Shown piece after piece: positions 33,021-42,390 of a DNA stretch of 64,000 nt (position 1 is its first letter; each line of letters starts with the position of its first letter). Origin of the DNA: an uncultured Candidatus Babeliaceae bacterium (GTDB taxonomy: Bacteria; Babelota; Babeliae; Babelales; Babelaceae); NCBI GenBank assembly GCA_963704655.1, contig OY969927.1, positions 192,001 through 256,000 on the forward strand. The letters run 5' to 3'. Below the pieces are notes generated by a model that searched no databases, was not told where the DNA came from, and saw only the letters and a program-made list of their open reading frames with translations. The translations under genes and the position numbers were made by a program.

Positions 33021-33854
33021 ATGGTTAAAACTCGTTTAGATAAAATTGTGGGGCAGCGCTACCCGGCGCTCTCGCGATCTAAAATACAAGAACTTATTAC
33101 ACAAGGTGCCGTTACGGTGAACGGCACCATTATTACCCGATCAAATTTTTTGGTTCTTGATAGTGCAATTATCGAACTTGATACAACTTTTCTTAAATAT
33201 GTTTCTCGCGCAGGCTTAAAGCTAGAATACGCATTACAGTATTTTAACATCTCTGTTAAAGATTTAATCTGCCTTGATGCGGGGTTATCAACCGGCGGGT
33301 TCACAGACTGTTTATTACAGCATGGCGCACATAAAGTTTACGGTGTTGATGTTGGCACTGCGCAGGTTGACCAAAAAATCGCGCAAGACCCCCGCGTGGT
33401 TATCATGGAAAACACCGATATTCGTAATATTATTCCACCAATAGGCGGGAACTCCCCTCATCCGCTCACCCTGAGCGAAGTCGACGTGTCCGGCGAAGCC
33501 TTGGCGAAGACGGAAGGGTCAAAGCGGCTTCCAGAACTAGTTGATATAATCACACTCGATCTTTCATTTATCTCCATAACTAAAGTAATAGAACATGTAG
33601 CTGACTTAATAAAACCGGGCGGGATATTAATTACGCTGATTAAACCGCAATTTGAAGTGGGACGTGAAGCCGCACAAGCTGCATCTGGGGTTATTAAAGA
33701 CAGCGATCTTCAACAGGTCACGGTGCAAAGCGTTATTAAAAGTATAGAATCAGCGGGCTTTGACTATAAAAACCTCACCGAATCACCGATTCTTGGCGGG
33801 TCGGGAAATAAAGAATTTTTAGCATATTGGTGCGCTAAGCGCACTGCTTTGTAA
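33021..33854 (+). CDS. tlyA: TlyA-family rRNA methyltransferase with an in-frame repeat insertion
   Basis: S4 domain, YVSRAGLKL, DAGLSTGGFTDCLLQ, DLSFIS, LIKPQFE and GNKEFL. Confidence 0.95.
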   Translation: MVKTRLDKIVGQRYPALSRSKIQELITQGAVTVNGTIITRSNFLVLDSAIIELDTTFLKYVSRAGLKLEYALQYFNISVKDLICLDAGLSTGGFTDCLLQHGAHKVYGVDVGTAQVDQKIAQDPRVVIMENTDIRNIIPPIGGNSPHPLTLSEVDVSGEALAKTEGSKRLPELVDIITLDLSFISITKVIEHVADLIKPGGILITLIKPQFEVGREAAQAASGVIKDSDLQQVTVQSVIKSIESAGFDYKNLTESPILGGSGNKEFLAYWCAKRTAL

Positions 33855-33881
33855 AAAAATTATAAAATAGTAAGTATATAT

Positions 33882-33972
33882 GCGCCCTACTTCGCTCTTG
33901 AAGAGCTCCGAAGGGCAGGCCTGTAGCTTTCCGGACTTCAAAATAGTGAGTTTTACTCACCATCCGTAGGTT
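33882..33972 (+). pseudogene. Fragmented duplicate of the tRNA-Arg(TCG) 5' half, interrupted by family B and C repeats
   Basis: GCGCC[B]..GCCTGTAGCT..CCGGACTTC[C]..ATCCGTAGGTT matches pieces of 34023-34071. Confidence 0.7.
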
Positions 33973-34022
33973 ATCGAAAAAATAACTTTTATTTGCTAAA
34001 ATTGATACAATATATATTAAAT

Positions 34023-34099
34023 GCGCCTGTAGCTCAATTGGATAGAGTGCCGGACTTCGAATCCGTAGGTTGCAGGTTCGAGCCCTGCCAGGCGCACCA
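34023..34099 (+). tRNA. tRNA-Arg(TCG)
   Basis: GCGCCTG/CAGGCGC acceptor stem, anticodon loop CTTCGAA, GCAGG-TTCGAGC-CCTGC T-arm, CCA. Confidence 0.93.
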
Positions 34100-34182
34100 T
34101 CTTTCGCTTATCCGGGGCTTCCGCCTTGGCAAGCTACAGATGGCAGGCCAGTTTTAAAAAATAAAATATTAGTGAGTAATTC

Positions 34183-34440
34183 ATGATAGAAGAAAGAAAA
34201 CTCAAGATAGCTGAAGCTCTTAAGGACAAGGGCGTGAAATTGCCATGTCCTCGCTGTGGTGGATTAAATTTTGAAGTCGTAGATCAAACGGTGCTATCAA
34301 TTAATGATAATTTAAATGTTATAAAATTAGGTGGTCCGTCTGTACCCGCAGCTTTAGTAGCTTGCTCACATTGTGGATTTATTACATTCCATTCATTGGG
34401 AGTTTTAAATTTAATGCCCAAAGATGAGAATATACAATGA
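34183..34440 (+). CDS. Small zinc-ribbon protein (cassette 1)
   Basis: CPRC...CSHCG. Confidence 0.75.
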   Translation: MIEERKLKIAEALKDKGVKLPCPRCGGLNFEVVDQTVLSINDNLNVIKLGGPSVPAALVACSHCGFITFHSLGVLNLMPKDENIQ

Positions 34441-34721
34441 ATTCCAAAGAGCCTGAAATTCATATTAATACTGCAGGTCCTGCTAACAAAAAAAGTAAGT
34501 TTGATCCTTCTATGCATCCTGGGGTTTTGGGTAAATTTTTTGGTGCTATCGAAAATGCGACTACTAGTATTAGCGGTTTAGTCGTTATTCTATTGATTGT
34601 AATTGCAACTTTAATTACATTTGTAGAAACAAAAGTTGATGCTACTGATTATTGGAAAAGTATTGTGTTGCCGACTGTTACAGCGCTGTTCGGATATCTT
34701 TTTGGAAAGCGTCCTAAGTAA
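34437..34721 (+). CDS. Small two-TM membrane protein (cassette 1)
   Basis: ATGA overlap with the upstream gene; two hydrophobic helices; C-terminal GYLFG. Confidence 0.7.
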   Translation: MNSKEPEIHINTAGPANKKSKFDPSMHPGVLGKFFGAIENATTSISGLVVILLIVIATLITFVETKVDATDYWKSIVLPTVTALFGYLFGKRPK

Positions 34722-34722
34722 A

Positions 34723-34820
34723 TAGATTGCAGGCCTGTCCTCTGTAGCGTGGTGCGTGAAACGCACTATTTCGCGTAAGGGGATTCGAGCCCTGCCAGGC
34801 GCACCATCTTGCGCTTATCC
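34723..34820 (+). repeat. Direct repeat of the tRNA-Arg(TCG) 3' end (attR-like), split by a family B/C repeat
   Basis: TAGATTGCAGG[34734-34783]TTCGAGCCCTGCCAGGCGCACCATCTTGCGCTTATCC vs 34066-34113. Confidence 0.9.
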
Positions 34821-34822
34821 AT

Positions 34823-34872
34823 GCCGCTCACCCTGAGTGTTTTGCGAAAGCAAAATGTTTCGAAGGGCGGGA
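34823..34872. repeat. Family A palindrome variant
   Basis: CCGCTCACCCTGAG-TGTTTTGCGAAAGCAAAATG-TTTCGAAGGG. Confidence 0.75.
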
Positions 34873-34923
34873 CCCATGGTTAGGAATGAAAAATCTAAGT
34901 TCCAAGCCTAAATTCACGAAAAA

Positions 34924-35940
34924 TTGAAGGTCTTTATGGAAAAATTTACTCAAAAAATTATGATTCTATTGGCATCAATTGCCTGTCTTGTATATGCAAC
35001 AGCTGCGCCGTTACATGCAGTGGATGAAGCATCTCTTAAGAGCTTAGAAAGCAACGCTTGGAAACATGCTTATGCGGATCGAAAACATCTAGCGCTTGCA
35101 ATATTCAAAAAAGCAGCGCGTCTTGGTAGTTGGCAAGCTGCACAATTTTTGGCAAATGAGTATAATGAAGAGCATTTATTGAGTGAGTCAGATGCTGACC
35201 ACGCAGGTAAAAAATTTGCCGAATTGGCAAACACTCATGAGAAGCGATTAGATGAAAAATATCCTTTTGTTTCGTCCACACCTGTTAGCAGAAGGCATCT
35301 TCTAGAAGATCGCATTCAAAAATTGAGAGCAATACAGATTGCCCGTATAACACCATGGTACAAGGAGGTCTTGGAAGAATTTCCCAGGGCACAACAGCCA
35401 GAAACAAGTGCATTATATATTTTTAATACACTTGTTGGGTCATCTGATTCGGGCGCTGGAAAATGTAGGCGAGGGCATTTGTTTGAGATAGCCGTACCCC
35501 ACGCTTCTAGAGAAACTTTACAAGAGATATTTAAAAAAATGAAAGAGCGTCATAAGAGGTGGACTGGACATTATTCATCGTCTTTTAAAGATCACATTAA
35601 AGTGAGTCGAAGTGTAATGCGGGGATTGGATTTAGCAGCTAGAAAGAACGATGCTATTGATGAACTTAAAGATGTTTATGGAGGGGCATTTTTTTACCTT
35701 TACTATGATTGGATTTTGGGTCGCGACCAGCTGAGCGATTTTGGAGCAACCCATGATGACTTTGACGAGGAGGACATGGTTTGTGCGTTCCAGGAGTTGT
35801 ATTGTAATTATGCAAAACTAGATAAGCAAGACGCACAAGATACTATGTTTGGTATTTTGGGTTTTTATATGAAAGAAAAAGATCACAGAATTAGTGAACC
35901 TGTTTCAAAGATATTTAAATTTGTTAAAAATGGAATGTGA
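34924..35940 (+). CDS. Secreted hypothetical protein with a Sel1-like helix (cassette 2)
   Basis: Signal peptide; ALAIFKKAARLGSWQAAQFLA. Confidence 0.75.
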   Translation: MKVFMEKFTQKIMILLASIACLVYATAAPLHAVDEASLKSLESNAWKHAYADRKHLALAIFKKAARLGSWQAAQFLANEYNEEHLLSESDADHAGKKFAELANTHEKRLDEKYPFVSSTPVSRRHLLEDRIQKLRAIQIARITPWYKEVLEEFPRAQQPETSALYIFNTLVGSSDSGAGKCRRGHLFEIAVPHASRETLQEIFKKMKERHKRWTGHYSSSFKDHIKVSRSVMRGLDLAARKNDAIDELKDVYGGAFFYLYYDWILGRDQLSDFGATHDDFDEEDMVCAFQELYCNYAKLDKQDAQDTMFGILGFYMKEKDHRISEPVSKIFKFVKNGM

Positions 35941-36010
35941 AATTTCATTATATGCATGCGATACTGAAAAACCCAAAAAGAATTTTTCATAAAAATTGTC
36001 TAATAACAAC

Positions 36011-36083
36011 CAAGTTGATATTATCGTAAGTAAAGTTGCAAAATAGTGCGCGAGCGCACCAGATAGACCGATAAGGCGCACCA
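36011..36083 (+). repeat. Cassette-boundary repeat R1 (arm + family C hairpin + tRNA-like 3' end)
   Basis: CAAGTTGATATTATCGTAAGTAAAGTTGC-AAAATAGTGCGCGAGCGCACC-AGATAGACCGATAAGGCGCACCA; nearly identical to R4. Confidence 0.85.
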
Positions 36084-36118
36084 AGTTTCAAGGACGATTT
36101 TTTATAGGTTAGGGATCG

Positions 36119-36694
36119 ATGATGCAAAACATTTTCATTTTATTAGCGCTTTTGCTATGCGAATTATATTCATACGCACAACCAAATGATCGAGGGGATA
36201 GTTCGTTGCATTTGGCTGTTATGGGAAGTGGGCCAGAAGCAGTAAGAGTTGTTGCAGAATTGATTGATAATGGTGCGGACATTGAAGCGCGAAACAATTT
36301 TGGTCAAACGCCCCTATTTTACGCAAGTTTATTCTGGGAAATGGATGACTCAAAATTACAAATAATTACTAATCTTTTATTAAAGGGGGCATCGTTACAA
36401 ACAAAAATCAAAGATGAAACTTGTTTTGAGGCTCTTAAGAAAGTTTATTTATTTAAGAGCGAAGGGCAAGTTGCGGAGCTTTTATCATTCTTCAATCGAG
36501 GTGAAAAGGATTTACAAATATTTCTCTCTTTTTTAAACGAACAGAAAGAACCAGCAATAAGAAAAGATGCATATAGAGAAATTATATTGAAATATCATCC
36601 TGATAGAGAGGTAAAGTATAGAGAATTACGCAATTTTATAACCCAAAAAATAATTAATTCCTATCGGCAAGCTACAGAGGGCGATCCAGTTTAA
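36119..36694 (+). CDS. Secreted ankyrin-repeat protein with a C-terminal J-domain-like HPD segment (cassette 3)
   Basis: RGDSSLHLAV, GADIEARNNFGQTPLFYA and AYREIILKYHPDR. Confidence 0.85.
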   Translation: MMQNIFILLALLLCELYSYAQPNDRGDSSLHLAVMGSGPEAVRVVAELIDNGADIEARNNFGQTPLFYASLFWEMDDSKLQIITNLLLKGASLQTKIKDETCFEALKKVYLFKSEGQVAELLSFFNRGEKDLQIFLSFLNEQKEPAIRKDAYREIILKYHPDREVKYRELRNFITQKIINSYRQATEGDPV

Positions 36695-36712
36695 CAAACA
36701 GGATGATTTTTT

Positions 36713-37150
36713 ATGTATAAAAGTTACATCTTCGTTCTTGCAATATGCACATTCTCATATTTATTTGCAACGGATCAAACAATTAATTTAAGGCTGCTGC
36801 TTGACGGTAAAGTTCGGGGTGCGAATATGATTGAGGCGATTTGTAAGGCTTCGTCTCACTCCCCATTGGCTGCCGCAGTGAGTGAAAAGAAAACTGTTGC
36901 AGTTGCCATAAGGCTGCGAAACAATGCATTAGATATTCGTTGTTTTGACACAGCCACGCCACCAGAATATATAAGCCTTATTGGAGAATATTGTTCCGCG
37001 TACCGCTCACTTTATCTAAATAAAGATATGATTACGTTGCGCTCATCAAATTTTGATTCAGAGAATCAGCTCGTTATTATTGGTTTAGCAAATAATGGCA
37101 AAGAACTACGCCAAGTTTATTCTGAAGAAAAATATGCTGTTCAAGATTAA
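36713..37150 (+). CDS. Secreted hypothetical protein (cassette 3)
   Basis: Signal peptide; AGGA RBS. Confidence 0.65.
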   Translation: MYKSYIFVLAICTFSYLFATDQTINLRLLLDGKVRGANMIEAICKASSHSPLAAAVSEKKTVAVAIRLRNNALDIRCFDTATPPEYISLIGEYCSAYRSLYLNKDMITLRSSNFDSENQLVIIGLANNGKELRQVYSEEKYAVQD

Positions 37151-37251
37151 TCATTTATTTCTGGGCCCTCTTAATATTCGAACTTCTATAAAATTATTTT
37201 TATAAATCTTGGTAGTATGGGTTATGAATATAACAATTGCCTGATAGCGAA

Positions 37252-37305
37252 CAAGTTGATATTCTTGTAAAAGAAGTTACTAAGATAGCCCGATAGGTAG
37301 CACCA
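37252..37305 (+). repeat. Cassette-boundary repeat R2
   Basis: CAAGTTGATATTCTTGTAAAAGAAGTTACTAAGATAGCCCGATAGGTAGCACCA, followed by a family B palindrome to 37369. Confidence 0.8.
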
Positions 37306-37582
37306 TATTGCGCTCTTTTAGAGCTACCTTCTTGCACTAAAGTTGCAAAGGACAGGCAGATGGCAGGCCATCCTCTTGTTTTCCAATCAAGTTACGAAAA
37401 TTTTGCACGAATAGAGAGGAACCAGGTGTCAGAATGGCAATTTACCTACATGGGGAATATTCTTGAGTACATGCATATTGGAAAATCAACAAATTTTTGT
37501 TCTTTACTCCTTGTTTATATAATCCAATTGTTATAAACTTTATAAGTTCATTTTTGTATAAACCCTTTATTCTAGGTTAAAC

Positions 37583-38245
37583 ATGAAAAAACTTATGTTC
37601 TTAATGACATTCGTAATGGTATCAAACTCTCTGGTAGGAATGGCGTATCTTACCCTTGCCACAGGAGAGCCAGTGAGCCTTGAACAACCAGATGGTACTG
37701 AATTTTCAGCGGTTGACATCTCACTCATGTTTGAATCCCATGCAAAACGTGTGTATGAAAATTTTCATGTTGACGCTGCGGTGCTAAGAAATACAAAATT
37801 TTTGGTGTCTTCTCATAAAGACTTCGCCCAGGTAGAGAAAGTTGACGATGGGAGAGCTTGGTTTTTTAAGCAAGCTGGGGAACTCGTACGATTGGTGAGA
37901 GGAAAAGATGGTTCTAATTATGTGGTACTTTCGCCAGCGATGTTAACTTGGTATGATGCGGGTCATTTTAATCATAATAATAGTACCGTGAGCTATAATG
38001 CATTCTATCTTTTTGAATTGTTGTCTGTTGCGCGAGGATGTACATTTGCCGATGAAGAGTTTGGCGGGCCAGATTATCTGGCAAAAAGATATAAGTTTGC
38101 AGTAGAAAGGTTTTCTTCTGAAGGCCTTAAGGGATTGCAAGAAAGCTTTGAGAGTAGCAAGGAGATAGTTTCTGGTTATCAGGGCGTGCCTGAACTGCTT
38201 GCTCAAGAGCTGGCAAAGCGCAGGATGTCAGCCGATAAAGAATAA
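37583..38245 (+). CDS. Secreted hypothetical protein (cassette 4)
   Basis: MKKLMFLMTFVMVSNSLVG-M signal peptide. Confidence 0.75.
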   Translation: MKKLMFLMTFVMVSNSLVGMAYLTLATGEPVSLEQPDGTEFSAVDISLMFESHAKRVYENFHVDAAVLRNTKFLVSSHKDFAQVEKVDDGRAWFFKQAGELVRLVRGKDGSNYVVLSPAMLTWYDAGHFNHNNSTVSYNAFYLFELLSVARGCTFADEEFGGPDYLAKRYKFAVERFSSEGLKGLQESFESSKEIVSGYQGVPELLAQELAKRRMSADKE

Positions 38246-38412
38246 AGGGAATTATTATGGATCATCTACCATTGTACCTATAAAAAACCATTTAAACTTC
38301 AGCTTTTTCATATTTTTTAAATCTATGCCACAGATGAACGTAACGAGCTTAAGGTATTCGGTATGGCTGCGAGCAGCTGACGGATAGCGTAGATTGTGCT
38401 ACTATCTATAGA

Positions 38413-38445
38413 GAAGTTGCGACAATAGCCCGATAGAGTGCACCA
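38413..38445 (+). repeat. Cassette-boundary repeat R3 (shorter match)
   Basis: GAAGTTGCGACAATAGCCCGATAGAGTGCACCA, followed by a family B palindrome to 38475. Confidence 0.75.
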
Positions 38446-38542
38446 TACTTCGCCAAGGCTTCGTATGGCGAGCCAGCCTTTTTACGGAATGACAGGCAAA
38501 TCATAGTTCTTTGTTTTTTTGAAAATTCTGAGGAAAATAATT

Positions 38543-38917
38543 ATGAAACAATTTTTTCTTTTTCTTGCGATTATGCCAATTGCATTGCTAGCCATGGAGC
38601 CAAATAATCATGCCTCTCTCGGACTAGTTGAGCATTTTGCTATAATGCTCAGTGCAGGTAGTCAATACACCGAGCGCACATTGGATAATTTAAAATCAAA
38701 ACGCTTGGAAAGTCTCGCTGAGATGAAACAAAAGCAAGCAATACCAAAAATTATAAATCAATTAGAAACATGTGCTGAAAATGATAAGCTAAAAAGCCGG
38801 GTGCAATGCCAAGTAGTTTATGATTGGTTCATTTCAGAGCTTCGAGCCCAAGGATATTTTACAAATGTACCTGTGGGTGGGGAATTTACTCAAAAAGTAA
38901 TGGAAGCCATTGAATAA
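38543..38917 (+). CDS. Secreted hypothetical protein (cassette 5)
   Basis: GAGG RBS; MKQFFLFLAIMPIALLA-MEP signal peptide. Confidence 0.7.
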   Translation: MKQFFLFLAIMPIALLAMEPNNHASLGLVEHFAIMLSAGSQYTERTLDNLKSKRLESLAEMKQKQAIPKIINQLETCAENDKLKSRVQCQVVYDWFISELRAQGYFTNVPVGGEFTQKVMEAIE

Positions 38918-39057
38918 TTTGCTTAGATTTACTTACCCTTATTAATAAAAATTGGCGAGAGCCAGAGTACAAACTTCAAAAACGTGGGCTAAATTTAAAG
39001 TTTTTTTCAAGCTTGAATGGCTTTTAAGCCGTTAATAGAAATTGTTTAATTGCAAGT

Positions 39058-39129
39058 AAGTTGATATTATCATAAGTAAAGTTGCAAAATAGTGCGCGAG
39101 CGCACCAGATAACCCGATAGGGTGCACCA
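39058..39129 (+). repeat. Cassette-boundary repeat R4
   Basis: AAGTTGATATTATCATAAGTAAAGTTGC-AAAATAGTGCGCGAGCGCACC-AGATAACCCGATAGGGTGCACCA, followed by a family B-like hairpin to 39163. Confidence 0.85.
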
Positions 39130-39293
39130 GTCATTTCCTTTCAGGGGAAATGCCTGGCAGGCCAGTCTCTTTAATCAACAAATTTTATATAAAAAAATTG
39201 AAAATTACGCGCCCGTAGCTTCCACCTTCGTTAAAACTATGGTGGACAGGCAGTTGTTTAAAATAAAATCTTGAATACTATAGTATTTATAGC

Positions 39294-39370
39294 GCGCCCG
39301 TAGCTCAGTAGGATAGAGCGACAGTTTCCTAAACTGTAGGCCACTGGTTCGAGCCCTGCCAGGCGCACCA
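39294..39370 (+). pseudogene. Chimeric tRNA-Arg: CCT 5' part joined to the TCG 3' end
   Basis: First 59 nt match 41428-41370 (2 mismatches); 3' end GGTTCGAGCCCTGCCAGGCGCACCA is identical to tRNA-Arg(TCG); mispairs in the T and acceptor stems. Confidence 0.85.
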
Positions 39371-39545
39371 GGCTTCGCTCTTACGAGCTTCGCCTGGCAT
39401 GCCAATTTCTTAAATGACTTTTTTTGGAACAGTAAACTTGAGATAATTAAAGCGAAGACTGTCCGGCGTAGCTTCTTTTTTATATAAATTTTTTATGAAC
39501 TATTCAGCGAAGCCTGGACTAATTTAAAAAAATAAAGTGATTTCT

Positions 39546-39788
39546 ATGTATTGTGTGTATATCCTTCGTTCAATTAATTTCCCGGACCAATTATATGTTG
39601 GCTGTACAACAAACTTGAAAAAGCGTTTATCTGACCATAATTGTGGTACGACGTCCCATACTGATAAATTTAAGCCATGGGAATTGGTAATGTATTTGGC
39701 ATTTAATAGCAAAGAAAAGGCTGTTGAATTTGAAAAATATCTAAAATCACATTCAGGTAGGGCCTTTAGAGATAAGAGACTTTTATGA
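39546..39788 (+). CDS. Solo GIY-YIG nuclease family protein
   Basis: YCVYILRS...LYVGCTTNLKKRLSDHN...TDKFKPWELV...EKYLKS. Confidence 0.92.
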   Translation: MYCVYILRSINFPDQLYVGCTTNLKKRLSDHNCGTTSHTDKFKPWELVMYLAFNSKEKAVEFEKYLKSHSGRAFRDKRLL

Positions 39789-39818
39789 TTCAATGCTCAT
39801 AGTCCGTCAAGAAAGTAT

Positions 39819-40655
39819 CTATCTCTTTACATCTAAAATATAACGATCTACGGGTTTTACTCGAACAAAACCAACCTCTTCATAAAGTTTTACCCCGCTA
39901 TGGGTTGCTTCCAATATAGTGCGCGGGATTTGTAAGGCTGCAGCACGGGCTACAAGTGTTGCAAGCATTTTGGTCGCTAAACCCTTATTGCGTGCATGCT
40001 CAAGAGTCGTGACATCTTTAATTTTTGCATACTCTGAAGTGCACAACAGACCTCCTGTTGTCACTAACGCACCATCTTGATAAATTCCATATAATTCGTT
40101 GCGTGCACCTGCTGGCATATCATCTATGCTGTTTTCCATACTAATGCGCAATGCATCCACAAGTTGCAGGTTTTTCACTCCATAATTTGTATAAACAACA
40201 TTTAACCAGGTACGTACTTCTTGTTTTGTAATAGGCACAACATCTTGATCTGCGGTTTTTTGAGCACCTTGATAGAGCATGAGCATTAAGGGAAGATGTC
40301 TAAATCCTGCGCTTTTTAAATGCGCAATTAATGCAGCATGTTTTTTATCGTCAGCACGCCAGTGGATTGGCACATTATGCTTGCGCACATAAGCAGTCAC
40401 TTGCGCAATATCTTGTTCCATCTGTTTAGGAGTAGACTGATCATAGCGCGTTATGATGTTTTGCCCGTTTGGCGGTACTCCAGGTTTCCACCAGGTCATA
40501 TGATCACGTTCATCTCGGGTTAGATGTGACTGCTGTTGAAGGGCATCATCAAAAGACTGGTTATTATACAATTCAGCCAACTCAAACTCGTTGCTATGCG
40601 CAAAGTGAATTGTTAACATGGTCATGAGAATCACGGTAATTCTTTTTAAAAGCAT
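39819..40655 (-). CDS. GNAT acetyltransferase with a signal peptide
   Basis: VTTLEHARNKGLAT and LEATHSGVKLYEEVGF. Confidence 0.82.
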   Translation of the reverse strand: MLLKRITVILMTMLTIHFAHSNEFELAELYNNQSFDDALQQQSHLTRDERDHMTWWKPGVPPNGQNIITRYDQSTPKQMEQDIAQVTAYVRKHNVPIHWRADDKKHAALIAHLKSAGFRHLPLMLMLYQGAQKTADQDVVPITKQEVRTWLNVVYTNYGVKNLQLVDALRISMENSIDDMPAGARNELYGIYQDGALVTTGGLLCTSEYAKIKDVTTLEHARNKGLATKMLATLVARAAALQIPRTILEATHSGVKLYEEVGFVRVKPVDRYILDVKR

Positions 40656-40774
40656 TCTTTACCTTTTTTTCTCAATGATAGATGAAATTTTATGTGTATA
40701 ATGTTGTATTCATATTGTATTTGAAGAGTAATTCAAATAACAAGTAATTGTTTAATTCTAAACTATTTTAATTA

Positions 40775-41299
40775 TCAGTATATGTATTCGCCAACTGCAC
40801 TACCTATAGAGTAACCTATGTGATAGCTGTATTGGCCAAGTGCTGTATGGCCCATGTAGTACCCTAAGCGGTAGGCTGAATATAAAAGAACTGCCCCTCC
40901 TATACATTTAATAAGTGGCCGTTCCCATTTTATATTACATGTATGTCTGCTAATTTGTTGTTGGATCTCAAGATACAATTGATCAGCTTTTATATCTTTG
41001 AGTTTCGTATAGTTAATTATCAATGAATTGCCATCCGAATGCATATTAAGTCGTATTGCTTCTGGACCATTTAATACGAGTACGATTGTAGGTACAGCGA
41101 CATTTTTTTGGTCACATTGATCAGTAATTATTTTATATAAGTGTGGGGCATGAGCATTATTTATTGTTATCTGAGTATCGTTTTGGCCAAACAATGCCTC
41201 AAGAGATTGTATTTCATCTAGAAGTTTTGAGGGCATAGAGAAGCTCTGAAATGGAAAAATGGATGATAACAAAATAAGCAGTTTAAGGACGGTTTTCAA
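40775..41299 (-). CDS. Secreted/membrane hypothetical protein
   Basis: TTG start, signal peptide, C-terminal hydrophobic segment. Confidence 0.65.
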   Translation of the reverse strand: MKTVLKLLILLSSIFPFQSFSMPSKLLDEIQSLEALFGQNDTQITINNAHAPHLYKIITDQCDQKNVAVPTIVLVLNGPEAIRLNMHSDGNSLIINYTKLKDIKADQLYLEIQQQISRHTCNIKWERPLIKCIGGAVLLYSAYRLGYYMGHTALGQYSYHIGYSIGSAVGEYIY

Positions 41300-41351
41300 T
41301 AAATTTCCTAGTTAAGGGGTGTAAAAAAGACTTTTATGTAGTAGCAAAGAC

Positions 41352-41428
41352 TGGTGCGCCCGACTGGAATCGAACCAGTGGCCTACAGTTTAGGAAACTG
41401 TCGCTCTATCCGGCTGAGCTACGGGCGC
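41352..41428 (-). tRNA. tRNA-Arg(CCT), intact
   Basis: GCGCCCG/CGGGCGC, anticodon loop TTCCTAA, ACTGG-TTCGATT-CCAGT, CCA. Confidence 0.95.
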
Positions 41429-41466
41429 AGTATTTCTTTTATATAGAGTATATTATACTTATAGTT

Positions 41467-42390
41467 ATGGAAAAAGAAAAAAAATATATCTGTCTTGGCA
41501 GTTCTGCCGCTTCACTTTCATGTGCGCATCACATAAAAAGGCTCGAGCCACAAGCTCAAGTTACACTTTTAACCGCTCAGCATGAATTGCCTAATAACAC
41601 GTGTCTTTTAGCTGATTATGTTGCTGGCAATCGCAGTAAAGAGTCTTTATATTTGCCGATTCCAGAAGGTGTTGATGTTCACTATAATGCAGAAGTTGAG
41701 TTAGTGGATGTTAAATTAAAAAAAATTATCACATGTGATGGCAAAGAATTTTTTTACGATAAACTTTTTATTGGCACGGGTTTAAAGCCGCGTGTTCCAG
41801 TAATCTTTTTGCCTGAATTATATAAAAAGGTTTTTCCCTATAAAACATTAGATGATATTGTCAGATTTGAACAAGTACATATTTCTGGCAAAAATGTTTT
41901 AGTGGTTGGTGGTGGAGTAACCGGCGTAGAAGCTGCGCATGCGCTTACTATTTCTGGTTATCAGGTAACATTAGTTGAAAAAAGTTTACAATTATTACCC
42001 AAATTTAATCAGGCAGCGTCGCAAGAGATTTATGAACTTTTGCAAACAAGCGGCGTAATGGTGAAATTAAATTATCAGGTTTCTTTTGATGATATTAATC
42101 AATTTGATGCCCTATTTTTAGCCACTGGCGGCGTGCCGGTTACTGATTTTATTAAAAATCAGCTAGAACTAGAAAATGGATTTATTGTTGTTGATGAAGA
42201 TCAAAGAACTTCAAGTGAAGATATATTTGCTGGCGGTGATGTGTGTTTAGGGCGAGTGCTTTGGCCACAGGCTGTTAAAGATGGGGTTGTTGCAGCGTAT
42301 AGTATTTTAAATAAGCCCGTACCAAATTTTAAATCGATACCGTATAAGACGGTTATGCGCATATTTAATGTTACGCATATTTTGTCATGA
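41467..42390 (+). CDS. FAD/NAD(P)-dependent pyridine nucleotide oxidoreductase
   Basis: YDKLFIGTG, VVGGGVTGVEAA and TSSEDIFAGGD. Confidence 0.85.
   Translation: MEKEKKYICLGSSAASLSCAHHIKRLEPQAQVTLLTAQHELPNNTCLLADYVAGNRSKESLYLPIPEGVDVHYNAEVELVDVKLKKIITCDGKEFFYDKLFIGTGLKPRVPVIFLPELYKKVFPYKTLDDIVRFEQVHISGKNVLVVGGGVTGVEAAHALTISGYQVTLVEKSLQLLPKFNQAASQEIYELLQTSGVMVKLNYQVSFDDINQFDALFLATGGVPVTDFIKNQLELENGFIVVDEDQRTSSEDIFAGGDVCLGRVLWPQAVKDGVVAAYSILNKPVPNFKSIPYKTVMRIFNVTHILS

Follow-up and report, generated by a model that had tools for sequence, protein, structure and literature searches.

Gene units between two tRNA-Arg genes

The window analysed here is a 64,000-nucleotide (nt) stretch of contig OY969927.1 from an uncultured Candidatus Babeliaceae bacterium, and our subject is an array of five small gene units that lies in it between a tRNA-Arg(TCG) gene (34023..34099, plus strand; 69.9 bits) and a tRNA-Arg(CCT) gene (39294..39370, plus strand; 55.2 bits). 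The units end in GCACCA at positions 34806, 36083, 37305, 38445, and 39129, as an earlier note on this DNA had described, and they measure 707, 1277, 1222, 1140, and 684 nt. Every unit consists of one or two open reading frames (ORFs) on the plus strand. Unit 1 ends in a boundary of its own type, called boundary 1 and treated in the last section. Units 2 to 5 end in copies of a repeat, termed R1 to R4, whose nature and origin are the main question.

R1 (35990..36083), R2 (37225..37305), R3 (38326..38445), and R4 (39036..39129) all lie on the minus strand, and the homologous repeat proper spans 37231-37305 in R2 and 38371-38445 in R3. The homology of the four copies, which the earlier note had proposed, was confirmed by an alignment of about 75 nt, and R1-R4 together with three further copies (n = 7) gave 75 aligned columns with a mean column identity of 69%. 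R1-R4 have a 23-nt tail in common. The tail pattern matched 5 times in the 1.298-Mb genome, in the four R copies and once inside a coding-like stretch, and this pattern is real and beyond chance. Pairwise identities range from 60 to 88%, and the distances among the array copies are similar to those that separate them from the R copies of other genomes. R1 and R4 are the closest pair (88% identity over 98 nt) and contain a 19-nt insert that occurs in no other copy. R2 and R3 are 60-77% alike to R1 and R4, and R3 groups with a fifth copy of this genome, R5, and with the copies of two relatives, the same-genus genome G003 and genome G001 (69-72%).

In this genome, a profile of R recovered only R1-R5 at E ≤ 5e-17 (R1, 4.7e-17). 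Across 41 family genomes, strong scores were confined to R1-R5, one copy in G003, and one copy plus a 24-nt piece in G001. We therefore rejected a genome-wide REP (repetitive extragenic palindromic) or MITE (miniature inverted-repeat transposable element) family, the former of which the earlier note had named as a possible alternative for the shared arm; there are only five R copies, four in the array and one at the end of a recombinase-carrying element described below. The scan of related genomes that the note had called for also established that the cassette genes are strain-specific, with gene content wholly different between relatives.

R and the tail of a large serine recombinase gene

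On its minus strand, R is coding sequence for the C-terminal 27-40 residues of a large serine recombinase (LSR) and for the stop codon behind them. The conserved peptide is in frame with the LSR sequence ...N-W-C in seven of ten R copies, the exceptions being R1 and R4, whose frames are broken by the 19-nt insert, and one distant, diverged copy. The orphan tail is open over 27 codons in R2 and over 40 codons in R3. In BLASTP comparisons, the R2 peptide matched residues 486-512 of a full-length LSR of 512 amino acids (aa) with 67% identity (E 7e-12), and the R3 peptide matched residues 486-512 of a 513-aa full-length LSR with 44% identity (E 4e-8). The codons TGG TGC (Trp-Cys) are the reverse complement of GCACCA, and the CCGATAG of the tail reads in reverse as Leu-Ser-Gly codons.

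The earlier note had taken this tail for the 3' end of a tRNA absent from the window. None of the 39 tRNAs and the transfer-messenger RNA (tmRNA) of the genome has such a 3' end, and a tRNA source was rejected. Instead, because R is antisense LSR coding sequence, its tail only resembles a tRNA end, and R is not a tRNA 3' end. R1-R4 overlap with tRNA sequence in GCACCA alone, and the core that is common with tRNA-Arg amounts to 6-10 nt. A severed coding piece explains the conservation of R as well as the lack of an RNA fold and of an Rfam match: the consensus of the seven aligned copies forms 4 pairs with a predicted energy of -0.36 kcal/mol and a covariation term of +0.69, and the Rfam search matched only the tRNAs.

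The C-termini of the 120 best LSR homologues fell into four groups. The R-type tail is the natural C-terminus in 9, all of them on contigs of ≤ 10.6 kb; 48 end in antisense tRNA sequence; 47 have their stop ≤ 5 residues from the Trp; and 16 are truncated or ambiguous. The attP crossover core thus lies inside the LSR reading frame. Integration would cut off the final ~85 nt of this gene, and R is the severed piece.

The genome under study contains a single LSR (489 aa, with Resolvase, Recombinase, and Zn_ribbon_recom domains), and the 3' end of its gene overlaps tRNA-Arg(TCT), 622 kb from the array. A DNA search with this element, which is intact, found the fifth copy, R5, where the element ends, 14.15 kb from tRNA-Arg(TCT). 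At the left end of the element, ...GGGCACACCA passes into the antisense LSR 3' end; at the right end, R5...GGGCACACCA precedes a trailer-like hairpin region. In the relatives G004 and G002, tRNA-Arg(TCT) passes directly into non-element sequence; these are empty sites, with a clear trailer hairpin in G002. In G003, a 505-aa LSR is inserted directly past the CCA of tRNA-Arg(TCG), the same gene that heads the array here, and toxin-antitoxin-like, DUF3987-type, and other genes come next. The sole R copy of G003 lies 26 kb from this LSR and 1.7 kb before tRNA-Arg(CCT), and GCACCAGT is the core common to both element ends. The layout recurs in G057 and G058, two Babeliales genomes reached via the LSR, where R-like copies in the right orientation occur at distances of 9.5 and 17.8 kb from a tRNA-Arg(TCT) that an LSR occupies and where both element ends again carry the 10-nt repeat GGGCACACCA. 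Outside this genome, the layout is thus present in three Babeliales genomes (G003, G057, and G058).

As a side observation, the cargo of the LSR element of this genome includes a plus-strand block (C1:842329-847696) that encodes an 827-aa Hsp70-like protein, a 605-aa protein without a family, and a 357-aa AAA ATPase. This three-gene block may be a defence or chaperone-type module.

The positions of R5 and of the copies in G003, G057, and G058 bear out the idea in the earlier note that the repeats are recombination-site relics of mobile elements at a tRNA gene. Its expectation that the recombinase is encoded elsewhere also proved right, as the window has no integrase gene and two tyrosine recombinases and one serine recombinase are encoded outside it. 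The enzyme, which the note had assumed to be a tyrosine integrase, is instead the LSR. Both tyrosine recombinases of the genome are Xer-like and far from the window, and they scored 98.9 and 36.7 bits with an integron integrase model that has a 265-bit cut-off.

In G001, four contigs break exactly at CCA. At the tRNA, one contig ends with tRNA-Arg(TCG) and another starts with the last 23 nt of this gene and its trailer; at R, one contig ends at the repeat and another starts with the last 25 nt of R followed by the LSR 3' end. The R|LSR pair of contigs is a junction of the attP type. Breaks at all four places suggest that integrated and excised states coexist, although repeats could be the cause instead.

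The LSR belongs to a large clade, with at least 579 relatives detected by a metagenome scan; of the proteins scored, 4505 reached E ≤ 1e-40. Antisense tRNA sequence was found at the LSR 3' end at 27 of 34 genome loci and 46 of 80 metagenome loci, and the abutting tRNAs include Arg, Asn, Gln, Glu, Asp, His, Pro, Ser, Ala, and others, so the family as a whole targets tRNA 3' ends. A Trp codon, the antisense of CCA, stands at the junction in nearly all clade members, which suggests one shared crossover position at CCA. No LSR relatives were found in viral contigs, and none of 16 whole metagenome contigs had the terminal overlap expected of a circle.

A further line of evidence comes from the DNA next to R. 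A conserved 3' trailer hairpin follows 22 of the 40 tRNA and tmRNA genes of this genome. Its stem is formed by the CCA plus the three bases behind it and a complement further downstream; C-N-N-G-C-C comes next, mostly with CCA at the end. The pairing bases co-vary (CCATCT/AGATGG, CCAGGC/GCCTGG, and CCATAC/GTATGG). A loose test for this structure was passed at 331 of 35,341 CCA sites genome-wide, and a strict test at 45 CCA sites, of which about 20 are tRNA or tmRNA 3' ends. R2, R3, and R4 passed the trailer test and R1 and R5 did not; by eye, R5 and boundary 1 are each followed by a variant trailer. The R2 trailer (37303..37370, plus strand), which would be the B' half of an attR, has an internal insertion; at R3 (38443..38475, plus strand), CCATAC pairs with GTATGG and CGAGCCA follows; and the R4 trailer (39127..39164, plus strand) is of the type seen behind tRNA-Lys(CTT) and tRNA-Glu. 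Behind tRNA-Arg(TCG), the trailer (34097..34150, plus strand) forms a CCATCT/AGATGG hairpin followed by CAGGCCA, and it makes up the right half of an unoccupied attB whose left half is the ...GGCGCACCA end of the tRNA gene. Because an attR consists of an element arm and a target flank, R joined to a trailer is the remnant expected from integration at a tRNA followed by a trailer. The hairpins themselves may function in tRNA 3' processing or termination or may be a mobile repeat. Further trailers in the window are located at 39368-39405 and behind tRNA-Phe (which ends at 15995), and at least one orphan trailer lies away from any tRNA (genome position 144199).

Origin of the array

The identity of R, the positions of its copies in intact elements, the empty sites, and the trailers joined to R together argue that R1-R4 are probably relic attR sites of LSR integrative elements that inserted at the ...(G/A)CACCA 3' ends of tRNA-Arg genes in this genus of the Babeliales (Dependentiae). 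On the best reading, element remnants have piled up in the array, and it is no integron-like machine for capturing genes. The attP core of the free element would lie 27-40 codons ahead of the LSR stop codon. Integration would split the LSR gene, such that its body would stay beside the tRNA (attL), now ending in antisense tRNA sequence, and the severed R would move to the far end of the element and be joined to the former tRNA 3' flank (attR), in this case the trailer hairpin. Each R of the window would then be a former element end, the one or two genes on its left would be the last cargo genes, and the recombinase and replication modules would since have been deleted. Every R would stand for an integration of its own at a fresh attB, followed by later deletions.

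Four remnants would in this way have become stacked between tRNA-Arg(TCG) and tRNA-Arg(CCT), which are immediate neighbours in many relatives and would here border a hot spot of insertion. Among the relatives listed, the spacing of the two genes is ≤ 250 nt in 10, 0.8-4.7 kb in eight more, 16 kb in G009, and 28 kb in G003, and it is 5.2 kb in this genome. Candidate routes for the supply of attB sites are regeneration by the putative element of unit 1, which would have crossed over in the T-loop (see below), use of both neighbouring tRNA-Arg genes, and inversions between inverted tRNA-Arg genes such as the one seen in the gene order of G002 and G001.

Several observations weigh against this origin. 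No trailer follows R1, and the trailers of R2-R4 are of three types, none of which is the present trailer of tRNA-Arg(TCG). The array (34100-39293) contains no integrase gene, and a tblastn search of it detected no fragment of an LSR body, so that each deletion must have been complete. Since serine integrases normally need an intact attB, four attR sites in the same orientation require regenerated attB sites or secondary sites. The 19-nt insert and 88% identity of R1 and R4 mean that this pair may be one lineage or a local duplication. Lastly, no activity was seen in this genome, which public runs cover at only trace depth: the best of them hold ≤ 0.17 of the words sampled, the contigs that belong to this strain are about as long as reads and have a depth of 2-4, and the junctions listed from these runs have sides of 21-26 letters and are unreliable.

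The point on R1 and R4 leads to a very improbable alternative, in which one attR-plus-trailer module was duplicated locally and diverged and the genes were turned over afterwards. This would account for the close similarity of R1 and R4 and their private insert. However, R2 and R3 are as distant from these two as copies from other genomes are, R3 sides with R5 and the G003 and G001 copies, the three trailers differ in type, and the cassette genes are alike only in short, low-identity repeats among those listed. Equally a matter of the array as a whole is the proposal of the earlier note that it is a working integron-like platform, here specified as one in which single R-bounded cassettes are moved in trans by the LSR at tRNA-Arg(TCT). 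R copies are indeed true recombination-site halves with a matching LSR in the genome, and the strain-specific cassette content would suit such a platform. A contig of a related strain in public run X5 joins the 145-aa gene of unit 3 to an R copy and has no other match in the stretch compared, but this is no proof of mobility. The R|P' junction of G001 could also be given by integration beside an R. Serine integrases excise DNA by recombining attL with attR. Yet no P' arm or attL-type partner was found in 33800-41600, leaving attL x attR excision without a substrate; an 8-of-9-nt P'-like resemblance directly past R1 is too weak for use. Moreover, only attR-type sites are present, there is no IntI and no attC-like hairpin, the coding role of R accounts for its conservation, and copies that are 60-88% alike, two with broken frames, fit old, independent relics. 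We consider a working platform of this kind very improbable.

The third alternative leaves recombination aside and takes R for a functional cis element or small RNA gene, such as a promoter, a terminator, or a tRNA-like RNA. A promoter-like TTGATA...CAAAAT spacing is readable in R1, R2, and R4, and R ends in ACCA followed by a trailer, as real tRNAs do. A promoter role for the arm, weighed on sequence grounds alone, was dropped when conservation was seen to track the antisense reading frame, with substitutions that fit a conserved peptide on the opposite strand, and it is also disfavoured by the G003 copy, which sits between two minus-strand genes. An RNA gene is opposed by the missing Rfam match and by the few predicted pairs and covariation term given above, and a cis element of either kind by the occurrence of only five genomic copies, one of them at an LSR element end. 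That R acts in this manner is thus extremely improbable.

Decayed element ends, as we read R1-R4, fit a known kind of locus, the tRNA-anchored island of decayed elements; what is new is an LSR whose own gene is cut by integration. Tycheposons of Prochlorococcus, as described in 10.1101/2020.12.28.424599, carry a site-specific integrase and replication genes and insert at tRNA genes, and in their islands newcomers push older elements inward while degenerate remnants and extra att copies build up. An LSR is reported there for 27 of 937 tycheposon elements. According to the same description, tycheposon scars are partial tRNA copies and the integrases are mostly of the tyrosine type, whereas the scars of the array are the severed 3' end of a recombinase gene; unlike those islands, the array shares only 6-10 nt with the tRNA and holds no recombinase remnant. 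The integrases of phage Mx8 and of SSV-type viruses are named as extending across attP in the account of PMC4383910. As in these systems, the crossover here would be inside the integrase frame, splitting the gene and leaving one element end with a piece of it, but Mx8 and SSV use tyrosine recombinases, whereas the enzyme here is an LSR and only its last 27-40 codons would be exchanged. The Islander paper (PMC4383910) states that serine integrases were not known to target tRNA genes, and R1-R4 do not fit the Islander type. The listings of literature searches outside the subscription journals contained no paper on a serine integrase with a gene spanning attP, and PMC12884075 contributed nothing specific.

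Like a classical integron, the array lines up small, co-oriented gene units that look promoterless and close with a repeated recombination site. Unlike an integron, it has no IntI and no structured attC, its sites consist of serine-recombinase attP halves and tRNA flanks, and it has no partner sites for cassette excision.

If R1-R4 are remnants of LSR elements, the unusual repeats of this reduced genome from the Dependentiae are explained as a record of past mobile-element invasions. The analysis also identified a broad LSR clade that targets tRNA 3' ends and has its crossover within its own gene. Islands whose scars consist of recombinase gene tails instead of tRNA fragments would escape island finders that seek displaced tRNA pieces. 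An attP inside the recombinase gene also means that integration would swap the C-terminal tail of the enzyme. Serine integrases are in wide use for genome engineering, and tail exchange is a testable candidate for the control of their directionality. It is conceivable, and in our view unlikely, that this swap is a built-in switch between integrating and resident states, not described before, with orphan tail-plus-trailer sites as secondary landing pads for a serine-recombinase capture platform that works in trans and by which the tRNA-Arg locus would go on gathering the terminal cargo genes of elements that pass through.

Boundary 1, cargo genes, and remnants of tRNA genes

Boundary 1 (34729..34820, plus strand) consists of a 55-nt arm ending in GGGGA followed by a 37-nt repeat. 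The earlier note had described it as an exact copy of the tRNA-Arg(TCG) 3' end; the copy was confirmed over 37 nt, comprising the last 23 nt of the gene and 14 nt of its trailer and beginning at the T-loop TTCGA, but with 1 mismatch. The sole other genomic copy of the arm is 224 nt downstream of the tmRNA gene, where it is joined to the last 23 nt of the tmRNA itself and a trailer. Judged by these repeats, boundary 1 is probably the scar of a different type of element, with its crossover in the T-loop, and together with the tmRNA unit it would represent a second family of tiny, integrase-less scars of the tDNA-fragment type. Because boundary 1 holds a tRNA 3' end and a trailer, it provides an extra, currently empty attB for LSR elements.

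The mini-unit at the tmRNA gene (C1:971290-971490, minus strand; 224 nt) is made up of a trailer, a 40-55-nt boundary-1 arm, the last 23 nt of tmRNA, and a trailer. A 20-nt tmRNA 5' fragment with a trailer lies ~130 nt upstream of the tmRNA gene. As in Islander islands, which tyrosine integrases make (PMC4383910), boundary 1 shows a displaced piece of a tDNA 3' end as a direct repeat with its start in the T-loop region; unlike those, its island is 707 nt long without an integrase and falls below the filters of that study, which call for 2 kb and an integrase.

The labels that the earlier note had put on the cargo genes held up in part. Ankyrin repeats, in a 191-aa protein of unit 3, are the sole Pfam assignment above the cut-off among the genes of the array; the J-domain (DnaJ) match of the same protein is sub-threshold (Pfam E 0.0024). 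Unit 3 cargo (36119..37150, plus strand) also includes the 145-aa ORF. Of the two ORFs of unit 1 (34183..34721, plus strand), one is 85 aa long and has two CxxC pairs, and the other is 94 aa long and has a hydrophobic segment; Pfam gave zinc-ribbon matches below the cut-off and nothing else. The 338-aa protein of unit 2 (34924..35940, plus strand), labelled 'Sel1-like', has an N-terminal hydrophobic stretch, matched no Pfam family, and has relatives in 3 of 40 family genomes. The label 'secreted' is putative and refers to N-terminal hydrophobic stretches visible in the translations. Unit 5 (38519..38917, plus strand) encodes a 132-aa ORF without a Pfam family. The ORFs of the G003 island gave no match to the array.

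Unit 4 (37583..38245, plus strand) encodes a 220-aa ORF, likewise without a Pfam family and with relatives in 0 of 40 family genomes. A weak paralogue in the same genome (C1:563455-563892, minus strand; 28% identity, E 1e-4) is its only relative in 41 genomes and lies just downstream of tRNA-Ala(GGC) and a trailer.

The tRNA-Arg genes around the array are accompanied by altered copies. The tRNA-Arg(CCT) gene at the right end of the array is chimeric, with a 5' part from Arg(CCT), last 23 nt identical to those of Arg(TCG), and mismatches in the T stem and one acceptor pair; an intact, inverted tRNA-Arg(CCT) (71.5 bits) is located at 41352..41428. Just upstream of the intact tRNA-Arg(TCG), the decayed 5' two-thirds of a similar gene (33881..33970, plus strand), which is not called as a tRNA, has a trailer-type hairpin inserted past GCGCCC and a 19-nt hairpin in the anticodon arm. 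G001 has a homologue of this fragment in the same place, upstream of its tRNA-Arg(TCG), and the inserted hairpin there carries a compensatory change. A second tRNA-Arg 5' fragment with a trailer-type hairpin is present at 39208-39250, just upstream of an intact gene. The 2 kb between the two copies of tRNA-Arg(CCT) encode a GNAT acetyltransferase and a small GIY-YIG protein and contain an ORF of 174 aa whose N-terminus is hydrophobic.

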